From: a virus
Reading direction: 5' to 3' (one strand)
DNA length: 46,420 bases
IMG/VR virus record: IMGVR_UViG_3300005253_000023
In this document: piece after piece, positions 11,491 through 35,083 of the stretch
Position numbering within the stretch: position 1 is the first letter of the stretch
How the letters are laid out: each line of letters starts with the position of its first letter
Program-made: the position numbers and the translations under genes
Notes under the pieces: generated by a model
Seen by the model: only the letters and a program-made list of their open reading frames with translations
What the model was told of the DNA's origin: nothing
The model's database searches: none

Positions 11491-11723
11491 GGTATGGGTA
11501 TCCCACCTCCGCTTAGGGAACCGTCATAAATATTAGTGTCGTCTACATAAGTATCAAGATCATTGGCTTCATCAGTTGTTAATTCCTGAAATAACCATTG
11601 AAATCCAGATGTAGCCGAAAATGCTCTAACACCCGATCCCGATGTATCAATAAAAGAAGATAAATTATTATCAATTGTTGTCTTGCCTGTAGCGTTCCAA
11701 ACTATCTTATGTACTTCGCTCAT
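11487..11723 (-). CDS. hypothetical protein (tail-fibre region)
   Basis: 78-aa ORF with an ATGA overlap with the downstream gene. Confidence 0.6.
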   Translation of the reverse strand: MSEVHKIVWNATGKTTIDNNLSSFIDTSGSGVRAFSATSGFQWLFQELTTDEANDLDTYVDDTNIYDGSLSGGGIPIP

Positions 11724-11734
11724 TTTTGCTTTGC

Positions 11735-12691
11735 TTAAGTTAAATTTCGTTTTAATGGTACTTGTGACACATCATTCATTGTGATCTGGAACTTGCCGTC
11801 CTTATTCTCTTTAAAGAATATACCCTCATTGTAGTCAGCGAGTTTCAGTTCTTTTTCTCTATACCGTTCATTGGCAAAGATATTGAAATCTGTTATCAAT
11901 ACCGTATTAGCTATTAAATTATCATCTAATATTAAGTTACTTATGACGCTAGGAATATATTCAAGCTCCAATGTATATTGAAATCCTATCTTGTCCTGAA
12001 TCTGAAATAACCGTCTATCGGCTGTTTCACCCTGCTCTTGTTCTAATATTCGTTGTTTGTTCCACAATCGGCCACGAACACGTACACTTTGCACCCAATC
12101 CATACCCGAATAGTCAAAGCCCCCTGTAATCTGTCCACTTTGACTAGTTTCTATCTTAACTGTCTGATGTGCCAATTGTGGATTATCATCTACATTCCAG
12201 TTCATTAGCCTATACACTTGGCTGTCTTTTATAAAGGTTTGCCCTGCGATGGTCAAATTACCACGTATTACATATTTACCCGTACCTTCAGCAGCTTCAA
12301 TAAGCTCCCAATCTGCTAAAAAGCCAGCCTTAAGTGGATGCCCTGAGATTGTACCCTTAGCAAAGAATGTCCCCAAAGTGTTATCGGTAATTGTTGCCTG
12401 AACGACGTAATTCTGTTCATTGATTACAATTGTACCCGAATCATCTTGCTTTAATAATTGAATAACAACCGTATCGCCTGTTAATTGTAACTGATATAGG
12501 ACAGACGAAGTATCACTTGTCTCACAATTTTGTGAATCATTAGTGGCTACCAATGCAAGTTCTTCATAGCAACATCCAATATCACAATCACATAGCTTTT
12601 CGGGAATGTCAAAGCATACAAGCTCCACAGATCCGCCAAGTAAATCCTGGGTCATTGGTGTGCCGTTCGGTAATGTTGATTCTATAGTCAT
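11735..12691 (-). CDS. tail-associated structural protein (hypothetical)
   Basis: 318-aa ORF directly downstream of the fibre genes. Confidence 0.6.
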   Translation of the reverse strand: MTIESTLPNGTPMTQDLLGGSVELVCFDIPEKLCDCDIGCCYEELALVATNDSQNCETSDTSSVLYQLQLTGDTVVIQLLKQDDSGTIVINEQNYVVQATITDNTLGTFFAKGTISGHPLKAGFLADWELIEAAEGTGKYVIRGNLTIAGQTFIKDSQVYRLMNWNVDDNPQLAHQTVKIETSQSGQITGGFDYSGMDWVQSVRVRGRLWNKQRILEQEQGETADRRLFQIQDKIGFQYTLELEYIPSVISNLILDDNLIANTVLITDFNIFANERYREKELKLADYNEGIFFKENKDGKFQITMNDVSQVPLKRNLT

Positions 12692-13017
12692 TTAGGAAGC
12701 CATATTTGAAGTCCGTTATCTACTAAATTATCCAGCTCAGATGATAATATAGCAATATCTACGCTATCGTCAAAATCTTCCCAACCACGCGCATAACCCC
12801 AAAGCTGAAAATAGTCAAACTGAAAGGTAAATAATCCTTTGTTTATCAATCGTTTTTCGGGCTTGTACTTGTCAGGATCACCGCTTTGCTTGTACTTTTC
12901 AAAACCTGTTTTGTTATCATCCATATCAAAGGTTTCAAAATCAGTGCTACCATCATTTTTAACCTTAATACAAAGGCCCATTGTCTTATAATTTATTATG
13001 TCTGCGTTGGTTTTCAT
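12688..13017 (-). CDS. hypothetical protein
   Basis: 109-aa ORF with an ATGA overlap. Confidence 0.6.
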   Translation of the reverse strand: MKTNADIINYKTMGLCIKVKNDGSTDFETFDMDDNKTGFEKYKQSGDPDKYKPEKRLINKGLFTFQFDYFQLWGYARGWEDFDDSVDIAILSSELDNLVDNGLQIWLPK

Positions 13018-13018
13018 A

Positions 13019-16000
13019 TCAAAATGCTTTAGCCTCTACAAGCCCCGGTGTTGTGGACTTATCATCAGGGACAACCGTATCCACAACATTATCTACTGAA
13101 CCGTCTTTGGAATTTAGGTCTATAAATCTAAAATTATTATTTGTCTGATCTACTGCAATAATCTCAGTTGCTGATTTTATAAAGCTACCCAAATGAAGTT
13201 CACCAAACCTAACCACACTACCCGTACCATCAACATGGCCATCAATTCCTGCTGCTGCCTGGAATGGTGATTCTACCGTCCAGTTTGCCGCCGCCGGGAC
13301 TGATATATTATCGGGTGTGCATACCCTGAATATTTCATTAGAACCGAATAGAGTTGCCCTCTGCCCTATCCACAAGGTAGGATTATTGTTAGAATCTTCT
13401 TCCAATATCTCAAGCTCTTCATTTGCTTGGAAACGTGCTGTAGCACCATCACCGTCTATATTGCCTGAAGCAGCATTATCTCCCAGTATTACCGTTCCTG
13501 TCCATTGGTTTACAAAGTCGGCTACCGTAGCTATCGCATCTGTTTGCAGGTTTCCATTGTAAATATATCGTTCTATGTTTCCTCCCCTGTTTGCTATTCC
13601 TGAACCATCGCCCCTATTTTGCAAGTAAACCCTGCCTATAGAATCTGATACGCAAGTAGAAAGTCCCGAATGTCCCGGTAATGCATTAGTTAAAGTTCGC
13701 TTCCATATAGCACCATCAAACCACGCTACAGATAGCTCATTACCGAATGCTGCTGTTATCAGTACTGGCTTGCCGTTTTCCCTTCGCCCCTCTATAATGG
13801 CTATATCTGCATTAACACCGCCGCCCACACCCGTTATAATCACCGTTGCTGTCCATCCTACACCTGCATTTTTGACCATCTCAAATACCTGACCGGTATT
13901 AAAACGATGACAATAGATTACAGGCTGCCCGTTAATTACGTCTAACTGATCTACTGCCAGCCCTTGAGGTGCACCTATAATAGCGATTACCTCAGAATCA
14001 TTGATTTCCCTGAATGTATTATCAATAAATGTCATCACCCTGACTCTTGAATTGGACTGATCAGCAACAACAACGGTATTTTCAGAAGCTAACAATAATT
14101 TAGCATGGCCAGGCCCGAACCAACGAGAGCTTATATGGAAGATAGGCACATCAATAGTATCTAAATTACTTTCTACGTTTGTTGGATCAAGGAAGCTACC
14201 TGTCACTTTCCATGCAATAGCTACTTGAATAATTGAGTTGTAAGCATCATGCACATCGTTTTTATCATAAACTATGTTAGACGGTGGTATGTCCGTTACA
14301 TCGCCTGCAAAGGCATTTTGAATATCTGTTTTTAATGCGCCCGAAAGTCCAGATAAAACACCTTGTGAGAAATCAAATGTTCCTATTATATCGCCATTAT
14401 CTTCCGTAAATCGCCATAGCTCATCAAGCAAATTAATATCCGTTATGGCTGGATCATCACGACGAACGATTATTGTAGTGGTAGCAGTCGGATCATTACG
14501 ATAATCTGTTGCCCCTGTTGGATCGCTGGCTTGATCTGTAATGATCTCTGCTGCCAGACCGTCCGTATTGTCGGCTGTTATATCGTATACTGGCAGTGGT
14601 ATAAGTGTAGGCTCATTCCATGTCCTGTAACCCAAACGATAACAACGATCATCTTCTAACCTTGTATGATCTATCAGGCATTCAGTAACAAATGTTAGGT
14701 CATTAGCAGTAAAGCCTACGAATACTAAAAAGTCTTCACCGTCTTTAGGGATTAGCAAGTTATTAGGCGGTGGGTCACGGAATGTTGATAACTCCCAATT
14801 GTTAAATGTGCCGTCTATCTCCTGAATTCTGTGAGCAGCCGTTTGTGGTAGTGCCGGAATCGGTGCTATCCCCTTGGCCCATGTTGTCCTGTATAGGGTA
14901 TTTGCATCCCTTGAAATTCCTGCATCAATACCCACTCCAAACGAAATTGTTCCTGCTTCGTTAAATGTTTCTACTGTTGCCGTCCATCCCGGGTCTAGCG
15001 GTGGTGCTTCGTCCCTATTGAGTAAATTAATGGTGTTTGACTTGTGGCGGTAGGTAGTTACCGAATTTCCTTCTGTAATCCCGGCTTCTAAAAATATCCT
15101 TATCTCATAACCCTCTTTTAGTGAATAGCGGCTTATATTATTATTGAGTCCGTCATTCTCTTCAGCAGCATCGTAAAATACTGTATCTGCACCGTCAAGC
15201 GCAAGCCAGTCTTGCCAATTGGCTTTCCATGCTATTGTTCCTTCTATTGGTTGACGATTTGATACCCTTGCTTGACCCGTTAAAGTCACTTCATTGAACT
15301 GGTCATCTACATTTAAATTAAAGCCCCGTGTAGTATCTAAGGTTATCTGTTGCGTGGTAAATCCCCCGTCTTGCGTAAAAACAGAATTAAAAACGTAGAC
15401 AAAATTTTGAAGCTCAAAGAATTCTTCTGTCGTTGGGTTAAACGCTACTAATCTAAAGGTCATTGAATCCAACAGAGCATCAAGATCAAGGCTTAATTCA
15501 CCCGTAAATTTTGTTAATATCCCATCTTCAATCCATCCTTTATAATCTGTAAATCCCGCTGTTGTCTTTTCAAAAGTATGTGGATAATGTACAACTTCGG
15601 TATAAGCCCAAAGCCCGGGAATATCTGCATTAATCACATATTCGTCCCGATCTATCTCTACAATTTCTTCATCAGAGGTATCTACTGTCGTCGTTTGGTC
15701 TTCTACCGATACTGAGATGAGAAATTCAGCACCTTCTTCTATTAGTGCTTGTTGTGCCGTGGAATATTCAAGAATTACTTCTATCGCTACATTATTGGCA
15801 TCAATTAAAGAACTATTTAAATTTGTTATGATACCGCCAAAAGCTACCGCTGATCCTATCACAACGCTATGTGAGTCTGATAACCATATTTCATCATAAT
15901 TACCTGTTTGGTCGGTATACTCTGCATCCGTTGGCAGTTTGCTAACATAAAACACGTACCTCGTAGCTGCCGTTACCAATGTGCCATTATCGCTGGTAAG

Positions 16001-16936
16001 TGTGAATTCTATTTTTGTGACTGCTGATTTTTCTATTCCCGTTGTAACTATCGCAGTATCCTCGTTAGTATAAACCAGGTCTTTAAATCCATAAGTACTA
16101 AGGCCACCGTTTCTATTCTCGCCATAAGTGCCGTAGTTGCCCAACAAAAGACTATCTTCTGCTACTACCGCCGTATTGGGGTCTGATAAAACCGTTCTGA
16201 TCTCAAAATTAGTTACGTAAGTAGGTGATGACTCACCCGCAAAATCCCCCAATGGATCACCGAAGGTCTCACCCTCTAAATGGTATGGAACAACCCTGAA
16301 TACATGCTCAATTTCATATTCCTGAACATAGGTAGAAACGAAGCCATTTGTTAGAACTTGTAATTCACCTGTTTTCCATAATGGTTCGCCACCATCAGCC
16401 GTAGCAGTTTTTAATTCACCTGTAAGGCCATCTACCTTAAAAAATTGTTCTGTCCCTGTGAAAGCATTGTTATAATTAACAGTATCATCATTTTCTATTA
16501 GCCCATACTTAAAGACCATAGCAGTTTTTGCCGTTGTACCCCTTAATTCAACATCCGAATAAGGCCCGCCAGCGTCGGTTAACGGTACACCCGCATCAAT
16601 AGAATAAAATAATTCTAAGTCGGTAAGATTTGTAATAGTGCCTTCAAAAGTTGTTTTTACCCCCGCCTGAAACTCATGAAATGTATCACCTATAGACCAA
16701 TCATCATCCAGCCAAGACCCCGATTGTCTTTCTATTAGATTCTGTGCATTAGTATAATCAAATAAATTTGTTATATCCGCAGTGCTTTCCCAGGATAATT
16801 GTAAGGTGTAATCAGCACGTTTAAGCCCTTGTATGAATCCTTTGGGATGCGTAGCGAAATCGCCTGTGTCAAGCGAAAAGTCGTCGCCATTTCTTAGAGC
16901 TGAGAAGAATTTTCTACTTGTGATCAGTAACGACAT
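13019..16936 (-). CDS. tail fibre / receptor-binding megaprotein
   Basis: 1305 aa, the largest ORF, downstream of the tape measure and baseplate genes. The C-terminal third has NHL/beta-propeller-like strands (VADQSNSRVRVM, AVDQTNNNFRFIDL). Confidence 0.65.
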   Translation of the reverse strand: MSLLITSRKFFSALRNGDDFSLDTGDFATHPKGFIQGLKRADYTLQLSWESTADITNLFDYTNAQNLIERQSGSWLDDDWSIGDTFHEFQAGVKTTFEGTITNLTDLELFYSIDAGVPLTDAGGPYSDVELRGTTAKTAMVFKYGLIENDDTVNYNNAFTGTEQFFKVDGLTGELKTATADGGEPLWKTGELQVLTNGFVSTYVQEYEIEHVFRVVPYHLEGETFGDPLGDFAGESSPTYVTNFEIRTVLSDPNTAVVAEDSLLLGNYGTYGENRNGGLSTYGFKDLVYTNEDTAIVTTGIEKSAVTKIEFTLTSDNGTLVTAATRYVFYVSKLPTDAEYTDQTGNYDEIWLSDSHSVVIGSAVAFGGIITNLNSSLIDANNVAIEVILEYSTAQQALIEEGAEFLISVSVEDQTTTVDTSDEEIVEIDRDEYVINADIPGLWAYTEVVHYPHTFEKTTAGFTDYKGWIEDGILTKFTGELSLDLDALLDSMTFRLVAFNPTTEEFFELQNFVYVFNSVFTQDGGFTTQQITLDTTRGFNLNVDDQFNEVTLTGQARVSNRQPIEGTIAWKANWQDWLALDGADTVFYDAAEENDGLNNNISRYSLKEGYEIRIFLEAGITEGNSVTTYRHKSNTINLLNRDEAPPLDPGWTATVETFNEAGTISFGVGIDAGISRDANTLYRTTWAKGIAPIPALPQTAAHRIQEIDGTFNNWELSTFRDPPPNNLLIPKDGEDFLVFVGFTANDLTFVTECLIDHTRLEDDRCYRLGYRTWNEPTLIPLPVYDITADNTDGLAAEIITDQASDPTGATDYRNDPTATTTIIVRRDDPAITDINLLDELWRFTEDNGDIIGTFDFSQGVLSGLSGALKTDIQNAFAGDVTDIPPSNIVYDKNDVHDAYNSIIQVAIAWKVTGSFLDPTNVESNLDTIDVPIFHISSRWFGPGHAKLLLASENTVVVADQSNSRVRVMTFIDNTFREINDSEVIAIIGAPQGLAVDQLDVINGQPVIYCHRFNTGQVFEMVKNAGVGWTATVIITGVGGGVNADIAIIEGRRENGKPVLITAAFGNELSVAWFDGAIWKRTLTNALPGHSGLSTCVSDSIGRVYLQNRGDGSGIANRGGNIERYIYNGNLQTDAIATVADFVNQWTGTVILGDNAASGNIDGDGATARFQANEELEILEEDSNNNPTLWIGQRATLFGSNEIFRVCTPDNISVPAAANWTVESPFQAAAGIDGHVDGTGSVVRFGELHLGSFIKSATEIIAVDQTNNNFRFIDLNSKDGSVDNVVDTVVPDDKSTTPGLVEAKAF

Positions 16937-17174
16937 CTTTTAAGTTTTCAAATGTTTTAATATCTAAATTACGTTCCATCCCCGATATACGCTGCATATC
17001 GCCCATCATAGCTATCATCTTATCAAGATTACCCTCTCGTATACAATTTAGTGCTTTATTGGCTATCATCTTATCTTCTGGCGTTTTGGCAAGACTGCGA
17101 ATTTCACCCGTAAGCTTACCAAGTCGTTTAGTTGCTTTGCCTGATTGTTTTATAAGTTTTTTTAGGTTATCCAT
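16914..17174 (-). CDS. hypothetical protein
   Basis: 86-aa helical ORF overlapping both neighbours. Confidence 0.55.
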   Translation of the reverse strand: MDNLKKLIKQSGKATKRLGKLTGEIRSLAKTPEDKMIANKALNCIREGNLDKMIAMMGDMQRISGMERNLDIKTFENLKDVVTDHK

Positions 17175-18876
17175 TTATCTTTTCTTCTTGCAGGTTATTG
17201 GTGTATTGTTGATGTTTTGCATAGGTAAGCTCTGCCTTATCTGCCGCAGCAGTCCATAACAATTGTATTGCTTCTTCACGTTCGCCTTCAGTAGGTATAA
17301 TTTCACCACTTTCTATTATTTCTATCCAATTATCCAGGTGGAAAGATTCTTGTTCAACCGACCTGGGTAGCCTCAATTGCCCCGATCCTTCTACAAAGCT
17401 ATCATATACATAGTACTTTTCATAAAGGGTTTCAGTGGATATTTTCTCTCTATGGTTAGGTCTTAACCCATTACCCTCAGTAAATACTAATTTAGGAACC
17501 GAAAACGTACGCTGTGAAATCTTCATCGGTTCAGGACGGTTTGTTAATCCTTTGGCCAAATTAGATTTTTGACCAAATGCCCTGAGTAAACTATCCGCGA
17601 TCCCTGCAAGACCTAATAATATTTCTTCAATAAAATTAAGGTTTCCTTTGCGTGATCCTAAAGCAAGTGGTATCTGTATACGCTCTTCGCCTGTTATTGT
17701 TGTTCCACCACCGCCTTTTATACTGGTAACTACGGTAAAGATCTTACCTTCTGTTTCCCTAGTAGTATAGTCGTCACTTGAATCGTCAATATACGATATA
17801 ATCTTGGTGCGATTTAACTGATCATCATTGAATTTAAACTCTTCATTGAGCACATCCTTGCGCCTATATTTAGCATTCTGTTGCCAAAATAGGTCGCCAC
17901 GACTGCGCTGGTGGAATACATTGTTGATAACCGCTGTTTTGGTATTGCCAAATGCTGTCACTATTCTTATTACGCCCGCAAGGGTGGCCCCCGGTTCACC
18001 ATCGGCGGGTATGCCAATAGACCTCACACCAAGTAAGGTATTTTTATCTTCTACCAATTGGGTCATAGTAGGAATATAAATAGCATCCTCTAGCTCCGTG
18101 ATGTCAGTCTCAAAGCCGTCATAGCCCAGAGAGTCTATGCCTTTTTCTATTAGAGTCTTTAGACTTATTCCCTTTAATGTACCCCTACGATCTTCAAATA
18201 GCTTGATAATTGCGACAATAAGTAATGCTACCTGCGCTGCTAAAATAGCATAATAAAGAGCAAATATGATAGTTTGTCCTAACTTCTGTTTCGCTCCTGC
18301 GGCTACGCTTGTCGGGGTTCCTGTAGCTACTATTGAAGTACTTGTATTATCATCTTCAGCGTCATCTCTAGCAACTTGTACCAAGCGATCAAATAAGTAG
18401 AAAACAATAAACTGTAATAATCCCGTTAATGAATCATCATTAGTAGGCACTACTTGAAAAGGAACTGAAGTATAATCCGATACCGTAATAGCCTTTGAAT
18501 CCACTAATTCTTTGAATGTAACACCTTCGGCCTTCGCCAACAGATCATTCATACCATTTATCTTTACAAGCGTTGCGGTATATTTTACGGGTGTTACTTC
18601 AGTTATTTCAGTTAGATAATTAGCGAACCTGAATATTGAACCGTTTTTTGTAATCTCCGTATTGTATGGTATCTGTACAAATATGCCAAACTGCCCGTTT
18701 ATATGATCCGTGATTATTGTTGCCGCTTCATTGACAAATGTAAGTTCAATAGGTTTAATTGATGCCTCAATGCTATTACGGGAAAACAATGCTTCAAACT
18801 GCATAGTCTTCCATTCAACAGGTGGAATGATTTGCTTGCCGTTTAAAAAGTGCCTTATTTCCTGTGTTGTTCCCAT
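17167..18876 (-). CDS. distal tail / baseplate protein (hypothetical)
   Basis: 569 aa, immediately after the tape measure. Contains an internal 26-aa hydrophobic segment. Confidence 0.6.
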   Translation of the reverse strand: MGTTQEIRHFLNGKQIIPPVEWKTMQFEALFSRNSIEASIKPIELTFVNEAATIITDHINGQFGIFVQIPYNTEITKNGSIFRFANYLTEITEVTPVKYTATLVKINGMNDLLAKAEGVTFKELVDSKAITVSDYTSVPFQVVPTNDDSLTGLLQFIVFYLFDRLVQVARDDAEDDNTSTSIVATGTPTSVAAGAKQKLGQTIIFALYYAILAAQVALLIVAIIKLFEDRRGTLKGISLKTLIEKGIDSLGYDGFETDITELEDAIYIPTMTQLVEDKNTLLGVRSIGIPADGEPGATLAGVIRIVTAFGNTKTAVINNVFHQRSRGDLFWQQNAKYRRKDVLNEEFKFNDDQLNRTKIISYIDDSSDDYTTRETEGKIFTVVTSIKGGGGTTITGEERIQIPLALGSRKGNLNFIEEILLGLAGIADSLLRAFGQKSNLAKGLTNRPEPMKISQRTFSVPKLVFTEGNGLRPNHREKISTETLYEKYYVYDSFVEGSGQLRLPRSVEQESFHLDNWIEIIESGEIIPTEGEREEAIQLLWTAAADKAELTYAKHQQYTNNLQEEKING

Positions 18877-21743
18877 ACGTTACTGGAATAATGAGTAATT
18901 ATTCTCTTATTTTTCATTGTTTTTGTTTCCCGTATCCCATCCACTAGGTTTGACCAGTCCACATGATACCCTGGTATACTATTTATTGCCTGCTTAACGT
19001 CACTAAGCTCACTTTTTAGCGTGTTTGTCTGGTTTTTGATAGCATTACCTATCCCGGCAGTAGAATCGCTTAAATTGAAGTTCGCCATACCCCGCGTCTG
19101 ATTTAATATTTCTTTGGTTTGGCTGGCAGTGTAAACGGTAGAGTGTCTTGGCAAATACGCTACTGTTTTATCTTCTATTAAACTAGCCCCTTTACCTGTT
19201 TGAACTATCTCTGCTCCATGTTCAGCAAGCTTGGCTAATCCTTCGGGTGAATCGGTTGTTCCTTTGAAGAATCCCGGTATGCCTGCTGCCCCTCCGGCTG
19301 TCTCTAAAATTTTAAATACCCCTTCCAATATTGCTTGTTGGCTTCCTGATTTTATAGCATCTAATAAATCAACTATCCCACCTAATCCTTCTTTAGTATT
19401 TTCAAGGTTTTCAATGGTTTGTTCTTGTCTTTTTTGCTCTGCATCGGCTGCATCTTGTTGAGCTTTGGATATTTTAGCAATAGACTCTTCTGTGTCCTTT
19501 ACAATAGTATCAAGCGTATCTTTATTTTCCTGTATTTTCTTTTCGTCTGCTTTTTTAAGTGCTTCCAAATCATCAAGAACAATTTTAGGAACTCCCGTTT
19601 TTTCATTCTCTTCTGCCAAGGCTGCGTTTAAATCTCTTGAAAGTTTCACACGTAATTTGAATGCCTCTTTCTCCCTTTTTTCTCTCGCCTTCCTTTGTTC
19701 TTTGGTTTCTTCCCTAGAAATACTAATATCAGGAGTATCTTCAATTGATTTTTTGATTGTTTCCAATTGTTTCTGTAATAATGCCAATTGATTTTTTAGG
19801 TTTACTGTCTTTTTAGACCCATCATCAAAAGCAAGATTTAAATTTTTAGTAGACTCTACTAAATCAGCATTGAGTACTAGTGCATCTGACTGTTGAGTTG
19901 ATAGATTTTGCATCTTTTTGCCAAGATTACCTAATGCCTCTTCTTCACGTTTGTTTTCTTTAGTTAAAATCTCTTCTTCTTGAATTAAATCTTGGGTAGC
20001 TTCTATTACATTTAATGTCTGAGCCAATAAGTCCTTTTTCTGGCGTAAATTAGCTTCATCAATATTTTTAACCAGCCGATCTATTTCTATCGCCTCTTCT
20101 ACCGATTTATTTAATTCTCTCTGCCCTTCTGCCGCTTCCTTGGCTCCTGATGCAAATGCTTTAAATGCTACCACTGCCGTAAGTACTACGGAAACTAAAG
20201 CACCGATTATATTTGCCTTTGTGACCTTGTCTAGCGTCTTAAATGATACTATCGCTGCTTTTATTCCACCAGTGAGGCCAGCCATTGCAACTTTTAATCC
20301 ATTAACGCCAAAATTCAATAATTTAGTTCTTAGACTAATTGCTATTAATACCAATCTATAAGAGCCCCAAGCTGTTACAGCTATTAAAATTACTTTTACA
20401 ATGGTTCTGATATTTTGCCCCAAAAACCTTACTACTCTGCTTAATCCCCTTGATGCCCCTGTAGCCTGATTGGTTCCTAATATAAAATCCTCCCACCTAC
20501 TTTTTAATATTTTAAGTTCAGCATCCAAAGACATCAACTGACTATCAACTAAATCCTGTAATGCACCTCCATTATCTCTTATTGCTTGGGCATTTGTTTG
20601 AATAATATCCGTATTCTCGGCAAGAATAACACCCACTTTAGCAGCCCTTGCACCGAATAAATCACCAGCAATAGCAAGTAATTCAACCCCTGTTCTTCCT
20701 TCATCAATTGCGATATTTATTTTATCCAAACCGTCCTGAAGCGTCAATCCTGATTTGGCAAGTTTTATTTGCGCAGTAGAAAGTAACCTACCAGAATTTG
20801 CAGCCTTTAGCCCGTTATCAGCTAATATACCTACTATAGCTCCTGTAAATGCTAAGTCTTCACCCAATAGTCTAGATATAGGAGAAAGAAATGCAAAGGC
20901 ATCTTTCATTTTCTCAAAGTTCAGCGTGGTAGAGGTTCTTATAGTTGCTATTACATCAGCAAATTCTGCCGCCGCCGCCGAACCTCTACCAAAAGCGTTT
21001 AATTGTTGGATTAAAAATTCACCTGCTTCAGCAGATGTTACTTTTAATCCAATACTTAAATCTGTAACAGGCTTAAGTAAATCAATTATTTCTTCTCTGG
21101 TCTTACCTAAAGTTGCTAGTGATTCAGCTAGTTGTGCTGTTTCATTGGCTGTTCGTACTGATGAAGCCCCTACTCTTCTGATTTCTTCCTCAACTGCTGC
21201 TAAGTCTTCACGGGATATTCTAAATATACCCGCTACAGTTTGCATGGTTAGCCCAAATTCACGAATCACTGTGATTGAACCACGAATTAGTCTGAATGCA
21301 CCAAATATTCCTAAAGTAACTCCTGCGGCTTGAGAAAGTCTAATAAATCCTGCCCGTACTAATCCTAACTGCTTGCTTAATCCTAATGTTGATCTGGCCG
21401 TTGCTCGGTTTTCCCTGTTAACTTCTTTTAATCGTTCGCGTATAACAGCTAATTGCCTGGCTTCTTTAGTGGCTGCTATTCTTAATCGTTCAGTAGTTGT
21501 GACTAGGGCTTTTTGCTGCCTTTCCCTTTCCTTGAGAGCAATATTGCCACGTTCAAGCTGTTTATTTTGTTTAGCAAAATCTGCTGATCGTGAACCAGGG
21601 CCAAGTCTTGTAGATGACAGGGTAGTTTTAATTTCTTTTAATTCAGCATCAGTCTTCCTAAGAGTCTGATTAAGTGTGACAAACTCTGCCGCCAATTCCT
21701 GGACTGCTTTTACGCCTATCTCATCGCCCCTAATTATCCCCAT
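18855..21743 (-). CDS. tail tape measure protein
   Basis: 962 aa, helical/coiled-coil rich with hydrophobic segments. Canonical position after the chaperone-like pair. Confidence 0.8.
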   Translation of the reverse strand: MGIIRGDEIGVKAVQELAAEFVTLNQTLRKTDAELKEIKTTLSSTRLGPGSRSADFAKQNKQLERGNIALKERERQQKALVTTTERLRIAATKEARQLAVIRERLKEVNRENRATARSTLGLSKQLGLVRAGFIRLSQAAGVTLGIFGAFRLIRGSITVIREFGLTMQTVAGIFRISREDLAAVEEEIRRVGASSVRTANETAQLAESLATLGKTREEIIDLLKPVTDLSIGLKVTSAEAGEFLIQQLNAFGRGSAAAAEFADVIATIRTSTTLNFEKMKDAFAFLSPISRLLGEDLAFTGAIVGILADNGLKAANSGRLLSTAQIKLAKSGLTLQDGLDKINIAIDEGRTGVELLAIAGDLFGARAAKVGVILAENTDIIQTNAQAIRDNGGALQDLVDSQLMSLDAELKILKSRWEDFILGTNQATGASRGLSRVVRFLGQNIRTIVKVILIAVTAWGSYRLVLIAISLRTKLLNFGVNGLKVAMAGLTGGIKAAIVSFKTLDKVTKANIIGALVSVVLTAVVAFKAFASGAKEAAEGQRELNKSVEEAIEIDRLVKNIDEANLRQKKDLLAQTLNVIEATQDLIQEEEILTKENKREEEALGNLGKKMQNLSTQQSDALVLNADLVESTKNLNLAFDDGSKKTVNLKNQLALLQKQLETIKKSIEDTPDISISREETKEQRKAREKREKEAFKLRVKLSRDLNAALAEENEKTGVPKIVLDDLEALKKADEKKIQENKDTLDTIVKDTEESIAKISKAQQDAADAEQKRQEQTIENLENTKEGLGGIVDLLDAIKSGSQQAILEGVFKILETAGGAAGIPGFFKGTTDSPEGLAKLAEHGAEIVQTGKGASLIEDKTVAYLPRHSTVYTASQTKEILNQTRGMANFNLSDSTAGIGNAIKNQTNTLKSELSDVKQAINSIPGYHVDWSNLVDGIRETKTMKNKRIITHYSSNVWEQHRK

Positions 21744-22242
21744 GACTGTTTATATTTTGGATAATACCATAGTAAGCGGCAGCCTTGATCTTGCGTGGAT
21801 CAATAAAAGATACATTCTGATATTTGGCAACCTGAGCCATTTCTTTGTTTCGTTGCGGTTTGGTATCTATTTGGAAGCCTTTTAATTCCCTTTCCTTGAT
21901 CCTGATCCTGTTATTTAAAAACAGATTCCCGGTAAGTGCCATATCTATCCTATCAATCATAATAGCCCCTTTTATTTTCCATATCCTTGTGAATTCATCA
22001 GATATGCCCATCATGTCAAAATATTGATCTTGCAATCCCATCCATATAGTCATAACATCAACTTTCACAGGTTTGTCTTTAAACAGGTATTTGGCATCGC
22101 CCTTATCAATCAGCTTAAACCAATTGAACAAAGGGATTTCATCAAACTGGCTGTATACCAAGCTCTCGTCGTATTTGGTTTTGGAGCTTAGCCAAGATAA
22201 AAGCTTGCCCCAAATCTTGCGTATTTTCTGTAGTAAGTTCAA
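21730..22242 (-). CDS. tail assembly chaperone extension frame (T-like) or independent gene
   Basis: Frame opens right after a TAA. The track start is TTG. Overlaps 22142..22624 by 101 nt in the +1 frame. Confidence 0.5.
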   Translation of the reverse strand: MNLLQKIRKIWGKLLSWLSSKTKYDESLVYSQFDEIPLFNWFKLIDKGDAKYLFKDKPVKVDVMTIWMGLQDQYFDMMGISDEFTRIWKIKGAIMIDRIDMALTGNLFLNNRIRIKERELKGFQIDTKPQRNKEMAQVAKYQNVSFIDPRKIKAAAYYGIIQNINSHGDN

Positions 22243-22624
22243 TTATATTTTCTCCATATTTATCTAATAGGTCTACTGTTAAACCTCTATCTCTAAAGTC
22301 TGTAGCCCTTTTAACCGTGTCGGCACTAGTCACAAGCCCTACACCCTTAACTGCATCGGCCCTGATAGACCTTCTGAAAACCCCGGTATCTGTAAAGTTA
22401 AACGGGTCGCCCGCTTTCTTCAGACCACCCGTAATTTTCTCAGTAGCTATAGAATATCTGCCTATTATGACATCATCGGCGTTTACACCTCTTCTAAATA
22501 ATTGATCATCACGAATGAACTTTACAGCCGCACTGCGAATAGCGGGATCAGAAAGAACTTTAAATAGGACGGTATCAGCATTAAGCCTTGCTCCCTTCTT
22601 TATCAGTTCCCTTAGTTTTCCCAT
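22142..22624 (-). CDS. tail assembly chaperone (G-like) candidate
   Basis: 160 aa, directly upstream of the tape measure region. Ends GUU UGA UGA. Confidence 0.5.
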   Translation of the reverse strand: MGKLRELIKKGARLNADTVLFKVLSDPAIRSAAVKFIRDDQLFRRGVNADDVIIGRYSIATEKITGGLKKAGDPFNFTDTGVFRRSIRADAVKGVGLVTSADTVKRATDFRDRGLTVDLLDKYGENIIELTTENTQDLGQAFILAKLQNQIRRELGIQPV

Positions 22625-22757
22625 GCTTTATAATATAAGCCCAACAGTCGCTAATATCAACACGCAGTTTACCCGTATGGGCTTTCATAAATGCTTCCTT
22701 GCCCATTGCCTTACAAGCGTCAACGTTCATGTATTTTTTTACGTATTCTTCTATCAT
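22581..22757 (-). CDS. small protein (58 aa)
   Basis: MIEEYVKKYMNVDACKAMGKEAFMKAHTGKL... ATGA overlap with the stop of 22754..23689. Confidence 0.4.
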   Translation of the reverse strand: MIEEYVKKYMNVDACKAMGKEAFMKAHTGKLRVDISDCWAYIIKHGKTKGTDKEGSKA

Positions 22758-23689
22758 GGTACTGTAATATCAGGTGGGTTTAACTTACTCAAGTCAAAAG
22801 TATCTCTTGATCCTGTCAACTGCAATACATCTGCCGATGTTTGTATAGGAAATACAAAATCATATATCCCAGAGACGCCGGGCGTTGTCTCAGTAACAGT
22901 AGTTACTACGATGGCCAGACTTGTCGTAAAATTAAAAAGTACAAAGTCAGCCAGTACAAGATTTGTGATAGGCTCTCTATTAGGGAGTGAACCATAGTCA
23001 AATGTAATGGTCGCAGTGAAAGTAGTTGTGGTGATAGTAGTATAAACACCATTAGCATCCCTTAAACCTTCTAGTGCAGTCAAATCAACACTGTCTAAGT
23101 CTTCAGAATTTACTTGACGTAAGTCTTCATCAAACTCAGTCTGTGCCATTTGGAAGTTCATCTGAACATTTTGGTTGTTAGTACCGCCAGTAGCACCCAT
23201 TAGACGAGTCCAAAAGTTAGACAATTCAATTGGGAATAACTTACTGGTATCGTCATCTCTCCACATCCCTTGTATAGCCCCTGATCTGTCTACCATATAA
23301 AATGAAAGATCAGAACAAGAATGATTCCTAAATTGGTCAAGGTAAGTAGTAGATTCACCTTTATTGTGCGCCACAAACTGTCGCACACCTTGTGAGATGA
23401 ATTCCGTTGAGCCGTCTGAATTTGATTCTTCTGTAGGGTCTGCCCTTTCAGTAGTAACATCTTTCAGATGCCCGGTAGTAGGAAACCAGCGTTTAGACTC
23501 ATCCGTGTTATTAACCAAACCATCAAAAAGTGCTTGGTTAAGTGTTACGGACAAATCCAGAAAATTCGCTGCTCCTGTAGTGTCATTGGTCTTCACGAAT
23601 ATGATTGTATCCATCAAGCCAAATAGGGTAGCACAAGTGGTTGTTCCCGTGTTGCCTATCCCTCCGCCGCATTTACATAAATCTGCCAT
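22754..23689 (-). CDS. major tail protein candidate
   Basis: 311 aa. The call rests on position only (upstream of the chaperones and tape measure). Confidence 0.4.
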   Translation of the reverse strand: MADLCKCGGGIGNTGTTTCATLFGLMDTIIFVKTNDTTGAANFLDLSVTLNQALFDGLVNNTDESKRWFPTTGHLKDVTTERADPTEESNSDGSTEFISQGVRQFVAHNKGESTTYLDQFRNHSCSDLSFYMVDRSGAIQGMWRDDDTSKLFPIELSNFWTRLMGATGGTNNQNVQMNFQMAQTEFDEDLRQVNSEDLDSVDLTALEGLRDANGVYTTITTTTFTATITFDYGSLPNREPITNLVLADFVLFNFTTSLAIVVTTVTETTPGVSGIYDFVFPIQTSADVLQLTGSRDTFDLSKLNPPDITVP

Positions 23690-23694
23690 AATTA

Positions 23695-24015
23695 TTAATA
23701 TTCTGTTATAAAAATTTCAAATGTTCCCGCTTCCGTTATTGCACATAGCTCACCCGTGTATATGTTATCCGTAGGCATTTCCCAAAATGGAATAGCACCT
23801 ACTTTAGAGCTTATAAAGATGCCCTTCATGTCATCGTCTACACTAGCGGGTTGTAATTTTAACCAAAACCCGATAGCGTTGTCATTATTAGATACATGCA
23901 AAAACACCCTGTTTGTATTGGCAACCGCTATCGTAGTAGATGAAGATGAATTTAAGGTAATACCTCCTGATACGGTAGCCGTTGGACTTGTATTTCTATT
24001 TCTTCCTATAGTCAT
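23695..24015 (-). CDS. virion structural protein (hypothetical)
   Basis: 106-aa ORF in the head-tail connector region. Confidence 0.6.
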   Translation of the reverse strand: MTIGRNRNTSPTATVSGGITLNSSSSTTIAVANTNRVFLHVSNNDNAIGFWLKLQPASVDDDMKGIFISSKVGAIPFWEMPTDNIYTGELCAITEAGTFEIFITEY

Positions 24016-25040
24016 GGTAGAAAATTAAATGCCGGTGACACCTCAGACACCAATGATGAGTTAATAATTTTAAATTCCATAACCGCCGTTACAAACGTAT
24101 TAGGGTTCGTATCCGATCGTGCCTGGAAAAGTATCTCTGACTTTTCAGGAAGCTTTAAAAATGTCTTAAACGGGTATATAACGTTTGACTGATAGTTTGA
24201 AGATATACCACCAACAGCAAACGGGCCAACGCCGCCGATCTGTATTCTGGGCCTTACCCTTACGTCTTCACCTTTAGGCGCGAATATTACCGCTTGCTCC
24301 CAAAATGCTGTCTTGCCAAGGGGTACGGTAAAAAATGAATCAAAAGACGATAAATCGCCTGCCTTCATTACACTCCTAACTAGTCCACCTCCTGATACAC
24401 GTAATGTTATATCACCATCATTCTCACCAAGACTGCCTACTTGTGAGGTTACGAACCTATTTTTTCTAAAATGTGTTCCCGATATTACAACGGGGGTTGT
24501 ACCGTTCATATCTACTTCAACTTCCGCCTGTTGTGTATAATCAGCAGCAAGCGTTTGAATTATGATTTTCTGTGCTCCTGTTCCTGCTATTGTATCGTTA
24601 ACACTTGAGCTTACTACTTCCCATTCTTCTGCAACAGTAGGAAATACAAGATTACCTCCACCATTCCACAGGTCAGCAAAAGTTAGTCCTACATCGGCCT
24701 GATTTGATATTATGCCCAAAGATGCAACGCCAGGAATAAGACCAATGGCAACTTCTAAGTCGTAATTGGTAGATCGTGGCTTGCTTGCGCCAACATTTAT
24801 TAAATCAAGTGCAGCTACTACCTGATCAATAGTTGTGAATCCTGAGACACCGTCAATTGTCCAGTCTGCGGCTGCCGCCCCGGTGGTTATTTTTGTGCCG
24901 TCTTGTAATGACATTGAGATAGTAGCTATAGATGCCCCACCTTTCGTATAACTATAATACCACAGGTTAGATGAATAAAAAAGATTGCCCTTTTCTGTCA
25001 CCTTAAAACCGCCCGTCTGTAATCTTTCTATAATTATCAT
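24012..25040 (-). CDS. virion structural protein (hypothetical)
   Basis: Start set to the ATG at 25040 (MIIIERL), an ATGA overlap with the stop at 25037. Confidence 0.65.
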   Translation of the reverse strand: MIIIERLQTGGFKVTEKGNLFYSSNLWYYSYTKGGASIATISMSLQDGTKITTGAAAADWTIDGVSGFTTIDQVVAALDLINVGASKPRSTNYDLEVAIGLIPGVASLGIISNQADVGLTFADLWNGGGNLVFPTVAEEWEVVSSSVNDTIAGTGAQKIIIQTLAADYTQQAEVEVDMNGTTPVVISGTHFRKNRFVTSQVGSLGENDGDITLRVSGGGLVRSVMKAGDLSSFDSFFTVPLGKTAFWEQAVIFAPKGEDVRVRPRIQIGGVGPFAVGGISSNYQSNVIYPFKTFLKLPEKSEILFQARSDTNPNTFVTAVMEFKIINSSLVSEVSPAFNFLP

Positions 25041-25594
25041 TCTATACAAACATCATTTTCATCGTACTCTACCGATAAGTTAAACCTTACAAAGTGAAAA
25101 TCGCTCATATCATCCTGTGATATTCTTTCACTTAACTCTGCGGATAATGTCAAACCTGTATAGACATTATCCCTGCCTGTAACAAAACTTTCAAGCTCAA
25201 ACATGGCATCTGATCTGTTTATAGCCAAAAATATATCGTTGTGCATCTCTTCATCTGCCCTGTGTAACACCCCGGGATATAGCTGATCTAGCTTGCCCTG
25301 AAATACTATACTTATCTCTGAGGTAAATGAATTAGCATCATACTCCCTGGTAGGATTGACCAGAAAAAAAGAACTTACATTAAATGAGTCATCAAAGAAT
25401 ACATCTTCGTATTCATTGCTTTCCAAATAATGTTCTGGAATAATATCTAGCCCATTAACATTAACATAAACTCTTGGATATGATTGATAGTCTGTCCATG
25501 ATGCCTTGGTAGTTAAATCCGTAAACAGGTGCTTTTGCAGGTTGTTCACCTGAATGTCTACAAGTACCGGGTTATCTTTTAACACTAAGCTCAT
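25037..25594 (-). CDS. virion structural protein (hypothetical)
   Basis: 185-aa ORF with ATGA overlaps. Confidence 0.65.
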   Translation of the reverse strand: MSLVLKDNPVLVDIQVNNLQKHLFTDLTTKASWTDYQSYPRVYVNVNGLDIIPEHYLESNEYEDVFFDDSFNVSSFFLVNPTREYDANSFTSEISIVFQGKLDQLYPGVLHRADEEMHNDIFLAINRSDAMFELESFVTGRDNVYTGLTLSAELSERISQDDMSDFHFVRFNLSVEYDENDVCIE

Positions 25595-26661
25595 GTCATC
25601 GTATCAACTGTCATCCTTACATTTCCATACCCTTCACGCAGTTTAGCGATCTGCTTTCTAATAGAAGCTATCTCACCAAAAAGCATCGGCCGAAGCCCAC
25701 TGATCCGTAATAGCCCTTCCTGATTCTGTCCTTCTATCTCTTGTGTTATACGCACTATTAACTCATCTGTCTTGCGTTCATTTTTATTAGATCGTAGCGA
25801 TGCTAAATAATTTGTCAGTGCATTGATTTGAGCCTTTAGCTGTATTGCACGTGAGAATAATTGCTTATTCTGTTTTATAAGATCAGTGAAATCATCAAAG
25901 ACCATTATGTCAGGATTAAGACCGATAGAACTCTCCAAACTTTCTTCATCATCTAAGTCAAACATCGTTTCCGTATTATGCCCAGGTACGAAAATTCGGC
26001 GTAGCGATAAATGTGTGAACTGTGATTGTATGTCGGCACTCTCAAATTCACGTTCAAAAGGTGTGATGGTTAGCCCATCGGTCAAATATCCCAGATAATA
26101 CTCTCCTTTATAAGTAGTATCAGAATTGTCAACCCTGAAATTCAATACCTCTTCCTGATGATCAGTGGTAATAGTAATTTCCTTCTCAAAAATAGGTGTA
26201 GTAAAAGATGTGTTAAACAACAACAGCTTAAATGTCCCCGTTGTTTTGAAGTCCAGAAGTATCCTTGTAATCTCAAAAGCTATGTTCTTCTCATTGGATA
26301 CCCTGATTTGAAAACCTACAAATCCGTTAGGCAGGGCAACAGTGTCAATCCTATTCTGTGCGTTAATAAATAGTAGATTCTTATCTATATAATCCGCTTC
26401 ATTGAATACAGAATTACATACATCAACAATGCTAGTATCTATCAGTTGCGACAGAAATGTATTAAAGTCAACGTCTGATATGCCCGAATAATCTTGAGTG
26501 TCTTTAAGATACTCAATCTTAGCAAAAGGGTTGTCATTCACAAAATAACCAGAACTACTTAGCAGATTATTAGCATCCACTATGCTAAAATCAGGGTTAA
26601 AAGGTTGCCTATAACCTACCAACCCTGATAAGTCTGTCGTTACTTTGGTCGGGTTAAACAT
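25591..26661 (-). CDS. virion structural protein (hypothetical)
   Basis: 356-aa ORF in the morphogenesis block. Confidence 0.65.
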   Translation of the reverse strand: MFNPTKVTTDLSGLVGYRQPFNPDFSIVDANNLLSSSGYFVNDNPFAKIEYLKDTQDYSGISDVDFNTFLSQLIDTSIVDVCNSVFNEADYIDKNLLFINAQNRIDTVALPNGFVGFQIRVSNEKNIAFEITRILLDFKTTGTFKLLLFNTSFTTPIFEKEITITTDHQEEVLNFRVDNSDTTYKGEYYLGYLTDGLTITPFEREFESADIQSQFTHLSLRRIFVPGHNTETMFDLDDEESLESSIGLNPDIMVFDDFTDLIKQNKQLFSRAIQLKAQINALTNYLASLRSNKNERKTDELIVRITQEIEGQNQEGLLRISGLRPMLFGEIASIRKQIAKLREGYGNVRMTVDTMT

Positions 26662-26910
26662 TTACTTTTTCTTGGGGTCTTTCTTGTCCTGATAAATCTT
26701 ATCCTCGGACTTGTTGATCTCCATGAAGACACCTGAATTTCCAAAGACTGCATTGATACTATCGGCGTAATCATCCGTTACTACCATTCGTTCTTTGATA
26801 ACCTTAGTCATCTTCTTATTCCAACCCTTTTCGTCCTTGTATAAGCTTTTATACTGGGTATAAACACTAAAATTTATGTCAACCTCTAAGAGTTTCTTTG
26901 CCTTTTTCAT
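26662..26910 (-). CDS. hypothetical protein
   Basis: 82-aa lysine-rich ORF directly after the capsid gene. Confidence 0.55.
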   Translation of the reverse strand: MKKAKKLLEVDINFSVYTQYKSLYKDEKGWNKKMTKVIKERMVVTDDYADSINAVFGNSGVFMEINKSEDKIYQDKKDPKKK

Positions 26911-26914
26911 GATC

Positions 26915-27943
26915 CTATACTAATGCGAATGCCAAAAGAGAAGTTTCACCGGCAACCGTCAGTGGTGTATCGTGAAAAGCCAAGTCAAGTGATAGCTCCC
27001 ATTCTGTTTTGGTATCCTGTTTTACTGAATTAGTTGCTGTTCCATCAAATCGTTCTACATAAGTATGCAGAGCGTAAGACAGACCATCTACAGGATTGAT
27101 CATGGTTGAATAAACATCTTCAGGAGTTACCCTACCTTCCCTGTTTTGGCGTGGTATCCATGTGTTTACACCTACAGACCCGTCCTGAATAGCTATCCAT
27201 GCACCTAAGCTGTAAGCAGAAACAAGAGCACCAAACAACGGGCCTAATTCAGGGGATCGTACAAACGTAATTCCTTCATTTTGGAAGGATAAGTTTGTAG
27301 AGTTAGAATTGCCCTGTTGGAGGTCTTTTTCAAACCTGTTGAAAGAAGTCTCATCGCAATAGAATGTATAACTTGGTGAGTAAGCATTAAGATCAAGAAT
27401 AGATTTGGTAATCTGTACAGCACGTTCTCCATTTGTACTGTTTGTGATCTCAAAGGTATCTTCAACAACATCAAAAGTCCCTTCGTTTGATCCCTGATCA
27501 AAGTCTACTGTATTTCTGTTGTTGAATAGATGGTTGATAGCTAATGTCTCAAAGCCATTCATAAAGGCTTTAATACAATTGTCAACGCCTGTATCAAATT
27601 CATCTGCCTGAGTAAAGAAATTGTTATCCATTCTCTTTAGTGAGGTCTGGAATTCAGATGTGCGAGTAACCCAACTGAGGGTTAATAGACTTGAATCCCC
27701 TACTGGGCCAGTATGATTAAATAATCGTTCCGTTCCCAAAGCAGGTGGATCACTGGCGCGAAAATTCGCCTCTACAGCACGATCTTCACGTGTTCTTACT
27801 GAGTTGTCGGGAACAAAGAAGTTCTGATTCTGTAAGAAATTCAGATACGTTGCTGGTCGTCTGAAGCGCAATTCATTTGCTTGAAACCTGTTTATCAATC
27901 TAACTTGCGCGGTTTTTAGATCGGTGGTTGTAAAATCTGCCAT
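26915..27943 (-). CDS. major capsid protein candidate
   Basis: 342 aa, immediately downstream of the scaffold-like gene, with its own leader. Call by synteny. Confidence 0.55.
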   Translation of the reverse strand: MADFTTTDLKTAQVRLINRFQANELRFRRPATYLNFLQNQNFFVPDNSVRTREDRAVEANFRASDPPALGTERLFNHTGPVGDSSLLTLSWVTRTSEFQTSLKRMDNNFFTQADEFDTGVDNCIKAFMNGFETLAINHLFNNRNTVDFDQGSNEGTFDVVEDTFEITNSTNGERAVQITKSILDLNAYSPSYTFYCDETSFNRFEKDLQQGNSNSTNLSFQNEGITFVRSPELGPLFGALVSAYSLGAWIAIQDGSVGVNTWIPRQNREGRVTPEDVYSTMINPVDGLSYALHTYVERFDGTATNSVKQDTKTEWELSLDLAFHDTPLTVAGETSLLAFALV

Positions 27944-27979
27944 TTGATTAATTATTAGATAGTTAGAAAATACCTCTAA

Positions 27980-28067
27980 GCTACCGCTTAATTAATCCCT
28001 GCCAGCTACCGCCAGTCAAATGATTTAGAGAAGTGTTGGCTACCGCCTATATCTTATCAGCTACCGC
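27980..28067 (-). repeat. four direct copies of GGCGGTAGCY (minus-strand sense) in the capsid-gene leader
   Basis: Plus-strand GCTACCGC at 27980..27987, 28005..28012, 28039..28046 and 28060..28067. The region is non-coding. Confidence 0.85.
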
Positions 28068-28076
28068 CGATTATTG

Positions 28077-28084
28077 CAAAAGTA
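28077..28084 (-). promoter_or_regulatory. -7-type promoter box TACTTTTG
   Basis: Fits TAnnTTTG. Sits just after the scaffold stop and upstream of the repeat array. Confidence 0.35.
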
Positions 28085-34659: not shown

Positions 34660-34673
34660 ATATGCAAGCAACA

Positions 34674-34705
34674 AAAAAGCCCACCTATTAAGATGGGCTT
34701 TTTAA
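34674..34705 (-). terminator. strong intrinsic terminator (bidirectional geometry)
   Basis: The minus strand reads AGCCCATC-TTAATA-GGTGGGCT followed by TTTTTT. An A-run precedes it. Confidence 0.75.
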
Positions 34706-34735
34706 TTATTCTCATATCTCAGAGCGGTAGCCTTA
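34674..34735 (-). ncRNA. candidate ~60-nt sRNA (or terL 3'UTR-derived RNA) carrying GGCUACCGCU
   Basis: A TATATTTG box (reverse complement of 34740..34747) lies upstream and the terminator hairpin closes the 3' end. No ORF. Confidence 0.3.
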
Positions 34736-35083
34736 TTCACAAATATACTACTTTTTTTGCAGGCCATTTATGGTTCACTAAATATCTTTTGGGCCATATC
34801 TGTATGATTGTGGCCTATAAAAGCAAAAACCGCCAAGTCTGTCTCCCTTGACGATTTCGTTTCTCCTTTGACACTTGGTCAACGAGATATACAACATTAT
34901 CCCCACATCTGCCAAAGGCAAATAAAAACATGCTCCACCCTTTGCCGACCAATATTGACTAAGGTTTTTAACTTATTGATTATCAACCATGGACCTCAAA
35001 CAGCTATTTTTAATCGTTTTTACTTTAATTAACATTGTTAAATCATTGATAATAAGGAATATAAACCATGGTCCAGATAGGAC

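Follow-up and report, generated by a model that had tools for sequence, protein, structure and literature searches.

Tandem GGTA-loop hairpins with an ops-like core in the capsid leader of a family of Bacteroidota phages

The 46.4-kb window (the whole stretch of phage DNA analysed here) carries genes mostly on the - strand, the sole block of + strand ORFs spanning 7705-10451, with flanking gaps at 9022-9236 and 9576-9926. Pfam matches in the window include a muramidase, Dam, ERF, YqaJ and a DnaA-C-like HTH (DnaA-C at 101-709). The major capsid ORF (26915-27943, -; phrog_7231) follows a scaffold-like ORF (28090-28905, -; phrog_30432), with the portal gene farther upstream of both. The 146-nt gap between the two (27944-28089) contains, as the original prediction had described, four repeats in one shared orientation: GCTACCGC on the + strand at 27980, 28005, 28039 and 28060, that is four times GCGGTAGC on the coding (-) strand, with spacings of 25, 34 and 21 nt. 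With their flanks, and in + strand reading, the copies are aGCTACCGCt (27979-27988), aGCTACCGCc (28004-28013), gGCTACCGCc (28038-28047) and aGCTACCGCc (28059-28068). The k-mer test that had been suggested gave a clear enrichment: the exact 8-mer occurs six times in the window, versus 0.30 expected, and none of 100 shuffles contained at least six. Four of the six copies fall within 88 nt; the remaining two are at 15843(+), in a coding region, and at 34724(-). In the 1305-aa ORF at 13019-16936, the coding (-) strand reads GCGGTAGCttttGGCGGTATC at 15830-15850, which adds a fifth copy in the shared orientation, a near-copy 13 nt off and a stem of at most 3 bp. It has probably arisen by chance, although an internal site of the operon is conceivable.

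A -7 promoter box of the Bacteroidota sigma-A type (TAnnTTTG), TACTTTTG, was found by box scan at 28077..28084 (-), where one had been predicted. Judging from the TSS map of Flavobacterium psychrophilum, in which the sigma-A box occupies -12 to -5 (PMC9723704), the capsid transcript would start at ~28072 and its leader would measure ~129 nt, in agreement with the earlier estimate of ~125 nt. The repeats are downstream of this Bacteroidota-type box and thus belong to the transcribed capsid leader, which ends in an A/U-rich, SD-less spacer (27944..27975, -) between the last hairpin (see below) and the capsid start codon (ATG 27941-27943). The scaffold stop codon is only 5 nt from the capsid -7 box (28090 / 28084), with no terminator at this place, unlike in most relatives, so that read-through transcripts from the portal-scaffold region would carry the array too.

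The capsid gene (26915-27943) comes first in a transcription unit that continues with ~19 head and tail genes (10420..27943, -; ~17.5 kb). A single gap of at least 30 nt interrupts this unit (22625-22753), and it contains no TAnnTTTG box; the gene packing and the lack of promoter boxes suggest that the whole unit is one operon. Window-wide, 20 of the 69 TAnnTTTG boxes are in the non-coding 11% of the sequence, a placement that fits a family infecting Bacteroidota, and sigma-70-type promoter matches are not enriched (58 versus 59 expected). No enrichment of terminator-like sites was found within the operon.

The copies do not pair with each other, as had been noted, but it had been missed that every one of them is self-complementary and folds as a hairpin, GC-GGUA-GC, with a stem lengthened by the flanks (MFE fold, stem scan). 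Hairpin 1 (28056..28071, -; core GCGGTAGC at 28060-28067; MFE fold and stem scan) is AUCGGC[GGUA]GCUGAU, with a 6-bp stem, and would cover ~+2 to +17 of the transcript given the TSS proposed above. Hairpin 2 (28038..28047, -; core 28039-28046; MFE fold) is GGC[GGUA]GCC, with a 3-bp stem; hairpin 3 (28002..28015, -; core 28005-28012; MFE fold and stem scan) is CUGGC[GGUA]GCUGG, with a 5-bp stem that includes G·U pairs; and hairpin 4 (27976..27991, -; core 27980-27987) is UUAAGC[GGUA]GCUUAG, with a 6-bp stem containing one U·G wobble. In the MFE fold of the leader (z-score -2.8 versus shuffles), hairpins 1-3 are formed and expose GGUA tetraloops, while an alternative pairing competes with hairpin 4, the 3' end of which is 32 nt from the ATG. 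C-GGTA-G hairpins with a stem of at least 4 bp are confined, window-wide, to the capsid leader, save for one antisense chance match at 16616. Rfam gave no match to the window at gathering score, nothing relevant to the leader at E<=10 (JUMPstart included) and nothing relevant in eight relatives at E<=1. A tRNA-like reading of GCGGTAGCTCA was dropped, as ARAGORN finds no tRNA in the window.

The phage has no blastn match among cultured phages, and tblastn retrieved nothing but capsids, 25-27% identical, from one Rhodobacteraceae phage and one Pseudanabaena phage. Its capsid has 129 metagenomic homologues, the nearest at 50% identity, and collections of metagenomes, viruses and genomes supplied ~250 related loci. 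Binning places relatives in MAGs of Flavobacterium, Lutibacter and Flavobacteriaceae, and farther ones, at 27-35% identity, occur as prophages of Chitinophaga, Parabacteroides, Prevotellaceae and Flavipsychrobacter; these bins and prophage hosts indicate that the family infects Bacteroidota. Nearly all relatives retain 105-480 nt of non-coding DNA ahead of the capsid gene, and independent contigs of the window phage have an identical leader.

We compared 126 distinct capsid leaders from related uncultured Bacteroidota phages, mostly Flavobacterium-binned. C-GGTA-G hairpins are present in 65 of them, one hairpin in 28 and two in 36, and four are found only in the window phage. Upstream of the relatives' capsid genes, GGCGGTA occurs in 51 of 125 regions (3.2 expected) and GCGGTA in 61 of 125 (6.8 expected). 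Conservation in related phages, the lack of which the original prediction had named as a refutation, is thus clear: the motif is kept at the same place next to capsids that are only 38-50% identical. Exact GCGGTAGC is found 49-104 nt upstream of the capsid ATG in six relatives (L127, L135, L136, L146, L222 and L258), and a seventh, L245, has two exact GCGGTAGC and one GCGGTAGT variant upstream of its capsid gene. The L245 capsid ORF (2833-4014, 393 aa) has a 51-residue hydrophobic N-terminal extension, and its units, in the order GCGGTAGC, GCGGTAGT, GCGGTAGC (2631-2832), are 55-135 nt upstream of this longer ORF, after an extra 76-aa ORF.

The geometry is also conserved. The usual layout is a terminator, TAnnTTTG, ~10 nt, unit 1, 21-25 nt, unit 2, ~40 nt of A-rich sequence and the ATG. 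The -7 box is present at a fixed distance in 64 of the 65 hairpin-bearing leaders; in the relatives' leaders 10-12 nt separate TTTG from the first closing C, units are spaced by 21-25 nt, and the 3' end of the last stem is 36-44 nt from the ATG (median 40), compared with 32 nt in the window. Counted generically, two hairpins in this layout are found in 88 of 125 leaders, versus 3.6±2.2 in shuffles, and the layout is kept in leaders that lack CGGTA, where the loops are GGTA (closed by U-A), GGT, AGT, CGT, GGTC or AGGTTC. G-T occurs within 86 of 104 proximal loops, and many relatives have loops of 5-6 nt (GGTAT, GGTAAT). The window array is best read as a four-copy, lineage-specific amplification of the one- or two-hairpin leader of this large family.

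Several clades depart from the common pattern. In one of them (L126, L142, L193, L124, L177 and others; -70 to -35 from the capsid ATG), the distal hairpin has a GTGCTA loop, the linker AGGTC(A)AA is conserved and the proximal hairpin, GGCT[GGTA]AGCC, is closed by U-A, not C-G; other clades have in common an AAGTCT linker between the two hairpins. The nearest relative, L494 (ERZ4219663 NODE_181, 9437-9819; its capsid is 50% identical), has an insertion of five tRNA genes (Leu-tag, Gln-ttg, Arg-acg, His-gtg and Pro-tgg) between the scaffold and capsid genes; after these come a terminator, a TACCTTTG box and the variant hairpins GGC[GGTC]GCT and AGC[GGAAAA]GCT. Four prophage relatives (L367, L368, L372 and L376; Chitinophaga, Flavipsychrobacter) have capsid leaders with 3-5 tandem hairpins of another type, CCCAAGAT(G/A)CTGGG or GCGCAGGATACAGTGC, at -150 to -20 from the capsid ATG. 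These arrays suggest that the hairpin-array architecture is older than the GGTA loop and that the loop class shifts with the phage or host clade. Scanning viral contigs for two GCGGTAGC 10-30 nt apart mostly returned coding repeats for Gly-Ser linkers (e.g. L035) and was uninformative; a scan for TTTG..GCGGTA..GCGGTA found the box and both hairpins in one of the 123 matches listed, already a member of the family, and thus has no bearing on any occurrence outside it.

The stems are conserved as structures and not as sequences. Among the 122 CGGTA units in leaders, 89 have stems of at least 4 bp with very diverse arms (e.g. GGGC/GCTC, TAGC/GCTA, GAAC/GTTC, TGTC/GACA and ATTGAC/GTCGAT). A 4-bp stem is reached by 73% of the units in leaders but by only 5% of CGGTA in the rest of these loci, and leaders contain the units at an 11-fold higher density. 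When the 3' arms were permuted among units, pairing at stem position 4 fell from 78% to 40% (0/5000 permutations reach the observed value) and at stem position 3 from 92% to 83% (7/5000). In a gapless alignment of 25 distinct units with 6-nt loops, the covariation score (count_structure_pairs) is 0.544, versus 0.254±0.035 in shuffles (0/500) and at most 0.17 for slid partners. Pairing reaches 88-100% at each of the four inner positions, with GC/AU/UA/GU exchanges. The covarying stems measure 4-7 bp, and ~25% of their pairs are G·T (G·U). When 39 heterogeneous leaders were aligned with MAFFT, the varying length of their loops caused misalignment and RNAalifold predicted no structure; the anchored-unit and gapless analyses were used instead. 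Compensatory changes across relatives thus back a conserved hairpin structure.

What could such a hairpin be? GCGGTAGC, exact in all four copies, is letter for letter the hairpin of the non-template strand of the E. coli ops element (PMC11685472, PMC5995543), the 12-nt loading site of RfaH (ops12, GGCGGTAGCGTG). Three of the four window copies extend the match to GGCGGTAGC (ops positions 1-9). Positions 10-12 are TGA, CAA, TGG and TTA in the window versus the GTG of ops GGCGGTAGnnTG, and a T-G step follows copies 1 and 3 only, one base early compared to ops; the unit of hairpin 1, GGCGGTAGCTG, is ops positions 1-9, then T-G. In the RfaH:ops structure, the loop G4-A7 (GGTA) is closed by the pair C3:G8, a pocket takes up the flipped-out T6, and recognition of G5 is base-specific; RfaH contacts loop nucleotides only (PMC5995543). 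ops sites are located in the leaders of long operons (PMC2871177), and RfaH-like genes have been found on plasmids and prophages (PMC7593976). The original prediction had proposed binding sites for a late regulator and overlooked this identity, which points to the control of transcription elongation rather than to generic regulator binding. Both elements have a GGTA loop closed by C:G on the non-template strand, and both precede a long operon (a predicted one in the phage) of a mobile element, within its untranslated leader; the two window copies followed by T-G also have a G ten bases upstream, like the elemental pause. The differences are equally evident: the phage element comes in tandem arrays of 1-4 starting at ~+2, whereas ops is a single site tens to hundreds of nt downstream; the phage stems are 4-7 bp long, covarying and G·U-rich, with loops of 5-6 nt in relatives; and the host phylum is almost devoid of RfaH, with no RfaH-like gene found in the phage. 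Divergent NusG paralogs are present in about half of Bacteroidota, RfaH proper being found in 1 of 1,908 Bacteroidota genomes (PMC7593976).

Other leader signals share part of these features. In Bacteroides fragilis, the opsX element read by UpxY is a GCG..AGC hairpin in operon leaders, with the Class 1 start codon at +41/+42 (PMC11685472). The phage element likewise has a Bacteroidota host, a small leader hairpin of the GCG..AGC type and upstream RNA hairpins; its start codon, ~40 nt past the last stem in relatives and 32 nt in the window, may be placed comparably, depending on where the polymerase pauses. However, opsX (YGCGNAGCR) is one nt shorter than the GCG-GT-AGC of the window, and it is a single multipartite site of ~40 bp in which the pause hairpin abuts the DNA hairpin, whereas the upstream hairpins of the phage are 7-20 nt away; moreover, the first gene of the operon is the cognate UpxY in B. 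fragilis and the capsid gene in the phage, which has no UpxY/UpxZ genes. In Firmicutes, LoaP reads an RNA tetraloop hairpin of the UNCG type (PMC12691694). Like LoaP and lambda N-boxB, the phage system may consist of small leader hairpins with conserved loops read by a processive anti-termination factor, and as in lambdoid N/boxB the loop differs by phage clade (here the GGTA, GTGCTA and CCCAAGATG types), but the loop sequences are others and no LoaP-like or N-like protein and no boxA-like element were recognised. The loading pause of lambda Q is promoter-proximal, in the initially transcribed region of a late promoter (non-template strand, ~+5 to +20) that heads a long late operon, and a read-out of hairpin 1 at ~+15 to +20 would be reminiscent of it; the phage signal is a hairpin, and no -10-like pause element, Q-binding element or Q homologue was found. 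Finally, multiple short hairpins with conserved G-rich loops in an mRNA leader recall CsrA GGA-loop arrays, and a hairpin 1-3 nt from the 5' end recalls ompA-type stabilisers, but the phage loop is GGUA and not GGA, an ompA-type stabiliser requires no conserved loop, and CsrA is not known as a Bacteroidota protein. We classify the array as a leader hairpin of the ops/opsX/boxB type that differs by its tandem arrangement, its position at the extreme 5' end and its association with a phage late operon. Our literature search found no ops-like elements described in phage late leaders or in Flavobacteriia.

A candidate protein reader was searched for in the phage itself. Among the 61 window ORFs, Pfam at E<=0.01 detected no NGN/KOW, NusG, RfaH, UpxY-like or known RNA-binding domain, PHROGs gave no NGN/KOW or known RNA-binding domain, and NCBIfam at E<=0.1 showed no NusG/RfaH/UpxY-like family among the best 25 of 46 matched families (to E=0.021). 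A relaxed Pfam search (E<=0.5) of 20 early-region ORFs found no NGN/KOW domain, a PDB sequence search with four unannotated ORFs found no NGN/KOW or known RNA-binding domain, and the Pfam-tagged 20-kb neighbourhoods of two relatives contained no NusG/RfaH/UpxY-like protein. A literature search for proteins binding GGUA-loop RNA yielded nothing pertinent.

We tentatively propose, with slightly less than even confidence, that an elongation or anti-termination factor is loaded where the late operon begins and that the hairpins, close to the promoter, are its loading signals. The four repeats would act in cis as tandem hairpins (closing C:G, GGTA loop, 3-6 bp stem) on the non-template/RNA strand, right after the predicted sigma-A promoter of the ~17.5-kb structural (late) operon. 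As the first few tens of nt are transcribed, a hairpin would be presented by the exposed non-template strand, by the nascent RNA or by the two together; given the position of hairpin 1 (~+2 to +17), the first read-out would take place with RNAP at ~+15 to +20. A trans-acting elongation factor, either a specialised NusG paralog of the host (UpxY/RfaH type) or an as yet unrecognised phage protein, would read the hairpin and, once loaded, would render the polymerase processive and termination-resistant through the long operon, possibly also coupling it to translation of the SD-less capsid mRNA. Extra hairpin copies would offer extra chances of loading. The data show the repeats, their covarying hairpin fold, the fixed distances to promoter and ATG, the conservation in the family and the match to the ops hairpin; from these we infer the existence and identity of this factor, as well as the anti-termination outcome. 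The context is suitable, since ops-type systems serve long operons and the element heads 17.5 kb of packed genes. As for the protein binding sites of the original prediction, a trans-acting protein would still be the likeliest partner, but the sites are not simple linear ones: they are hairpins with covarying stems.

Two other readings appear very improbable. The repeats could be duplex-DNA operators, iteron-like direct repeats bound downstream of the promoter by a phage late activator or repressor; they do adjoin the promoter in the same orientation, and a spacing of 21-25 bp is about two helical turns. Duplex sites conserve sequence and not complementarity, though, and here the flanks covary to keep intramolecular pairing around conserved GGUA loops, which argues against such operators; G·T pairs, which are C·A mismatches on the other strand, are common, and every unit is on the non-template strand downstream of the proposed TSS. 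This is the least credible of the explanations considered, and a partnership with an sRNA, suggested originally for a candidate at 34674..34735, fares hardly better. That proposal would have a phage sRNA (34747 to ~34670, -) pair through AGGCUACCGC with the four GCGGUAGC sites and regulate the capsid gene. The unit itself (34668..34747, -), in a 630-nt gap (34454-35083) just downstream of the terminase gene, is at best a weakly supported accessory element, but does look genuine, with a perfect -7 box TATATTTG at 34740-34747, 8 nt farther GCTACCGC, one of only two copies of the 8-mer outside the leader, and a strong intrinsic terminator at 34674-34710; it would give an RNA of ~60-70 nt or act as an attenuator. 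Its single-stranded 5' AGGCUACCGC, an 8-9-mer antisense to the hairpin core, stays unpaired as a seed in a fold of -22 kcal/mol, and the seed-leader duplex (-21.4 kcal/mol) outranks 99.1% of genome windows. Beyond the terminator of the unit comes another -7 box, TAGTTTTG (34645-34652). However, in the relatives, with up to 10 kb of sequence upstream of the capsid gene, the gene strand of that part never contains an antisense version of the relative's own core; the three antisense 8-mer matches (L312, L341) are all downstream of the capsid start; a promoter box with TACCGC was met just twice across 1.4 Mb of relatives, in each case within a gene; and the target bases are largely sequestered in stems. 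The hairpins are conserved family-wide and the sRNA unit is not, so the core function of the hairpins cannot depend on it.

A purely post-transcriptional role is a more serious contender, well short of an even chance but quite possible. The RNA hairpins would then combine a 5' stabiliser with the operator of an RNA-binding protein and leave the polymerase unmodified: the 5' stem-loop (~+2 to +17) would shield the capsid mRNA from 5'-end-dependent decay, and the GGUA loops would be bound by a phage or host protein tuning stability, processing or translation. A hairpin 1-3 nt from the 5' end is the classical geometry of a 5' stabiliser (ompA-type), and only 1-3 unpaired nt precede hairpin 1. This explanation is favoured by the compensatory changes and by the stems, which measure 4-7 bp and have G·U at ~25% of their pairs; such stems also exceed what a transcription bubble of 10-11 nt can hold, which speaks against a read-out through DNA only, and G·T pairs at this frequency are typical of RNA rather than DNA pairing, which argues that the RNA form also matters. 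Zuber et al. indeed considered even the second base pair doubtful in the TEC, with its bubble of 10-11 nt (PMC5995543). The last hairpin stands 36-44 nt from the ATG, just beyond the 30S footprint, in an A-rich SD-less leader (for the context of which we refer, in part, to a study of Bacteroidota translation, PMC6847099), and the element is always tied to the capsid gene, even in L494 with its five inserted tRNA genes. Other observations tell directly against factor loading: no NusG-like protein was detected in the phage, which also suits the post-transcriptional alternative, and RfaH is nearly absent from Bacteroidota; many relatives have 5-6-nt loops; T-G is found after just two window copies out of four; hairpin 1, at ~+2, is much nearer the promoter than any known ops site; the operon shows no enrichment of terminator-like sites; Rfam reports no JUMPstart match; and opsX is one base shorter. 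On the other hand, a stabiliser alone leaves unexplained why GGUA and the closing C:G are invariant when the stems change freely, as well as the letter-for-letter identity with ops, and neither a GGUA-loop-binding family in our literature search nor an annotated RNA-binding protein in the phage came forward to read the loops.

Factor loading by ops-type hairpins can be taken one step further: Flavobacteriia phages of a widespread family may drive their late operon by tandem hairpins of this type, right at the beginning of the transcript, that capture either a specialised NusG paralog of the host or a phage protein of a different fold reading the GGTA hairpin. We regard this extended version as rather unlikely, but if true, neither phage late genes nor Flavobacteriia would have had an ops-like system of processive anti-termination described before. 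Its recognition hairpin would be the one that enterobacterial RfaH reads, although the hosts belong to different phyla, and copy number (1-4) would be an evolvable gain control. If the RNA-only reading is right, the hairpins would be a new conserved leader operator of the most abundant phage mRNA, a useful though less surprising result. Late transcription in Bacteroidota phages is essentially uncharacterised, and NusG-paralog signals are largely uncharted beyond E. coli, Bacillus and B. fragilis. Here, a compact motif backed by covariation and absent from Rfam marks the capsid gene and late promoter in more than 100 uncultured phage genomes, which makes it a practical marker of both in Flavobacteriia phage contigs. 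Its leaders with one, two and four copies and its clade-specific loop variants form a natural series for dissecting how small hairpins are read on the non-template strand or RNA, and the core that it has in common with the best-understood loading site of an elongation factor opens a testable ops/NusG-paralog hypothesis for this family.
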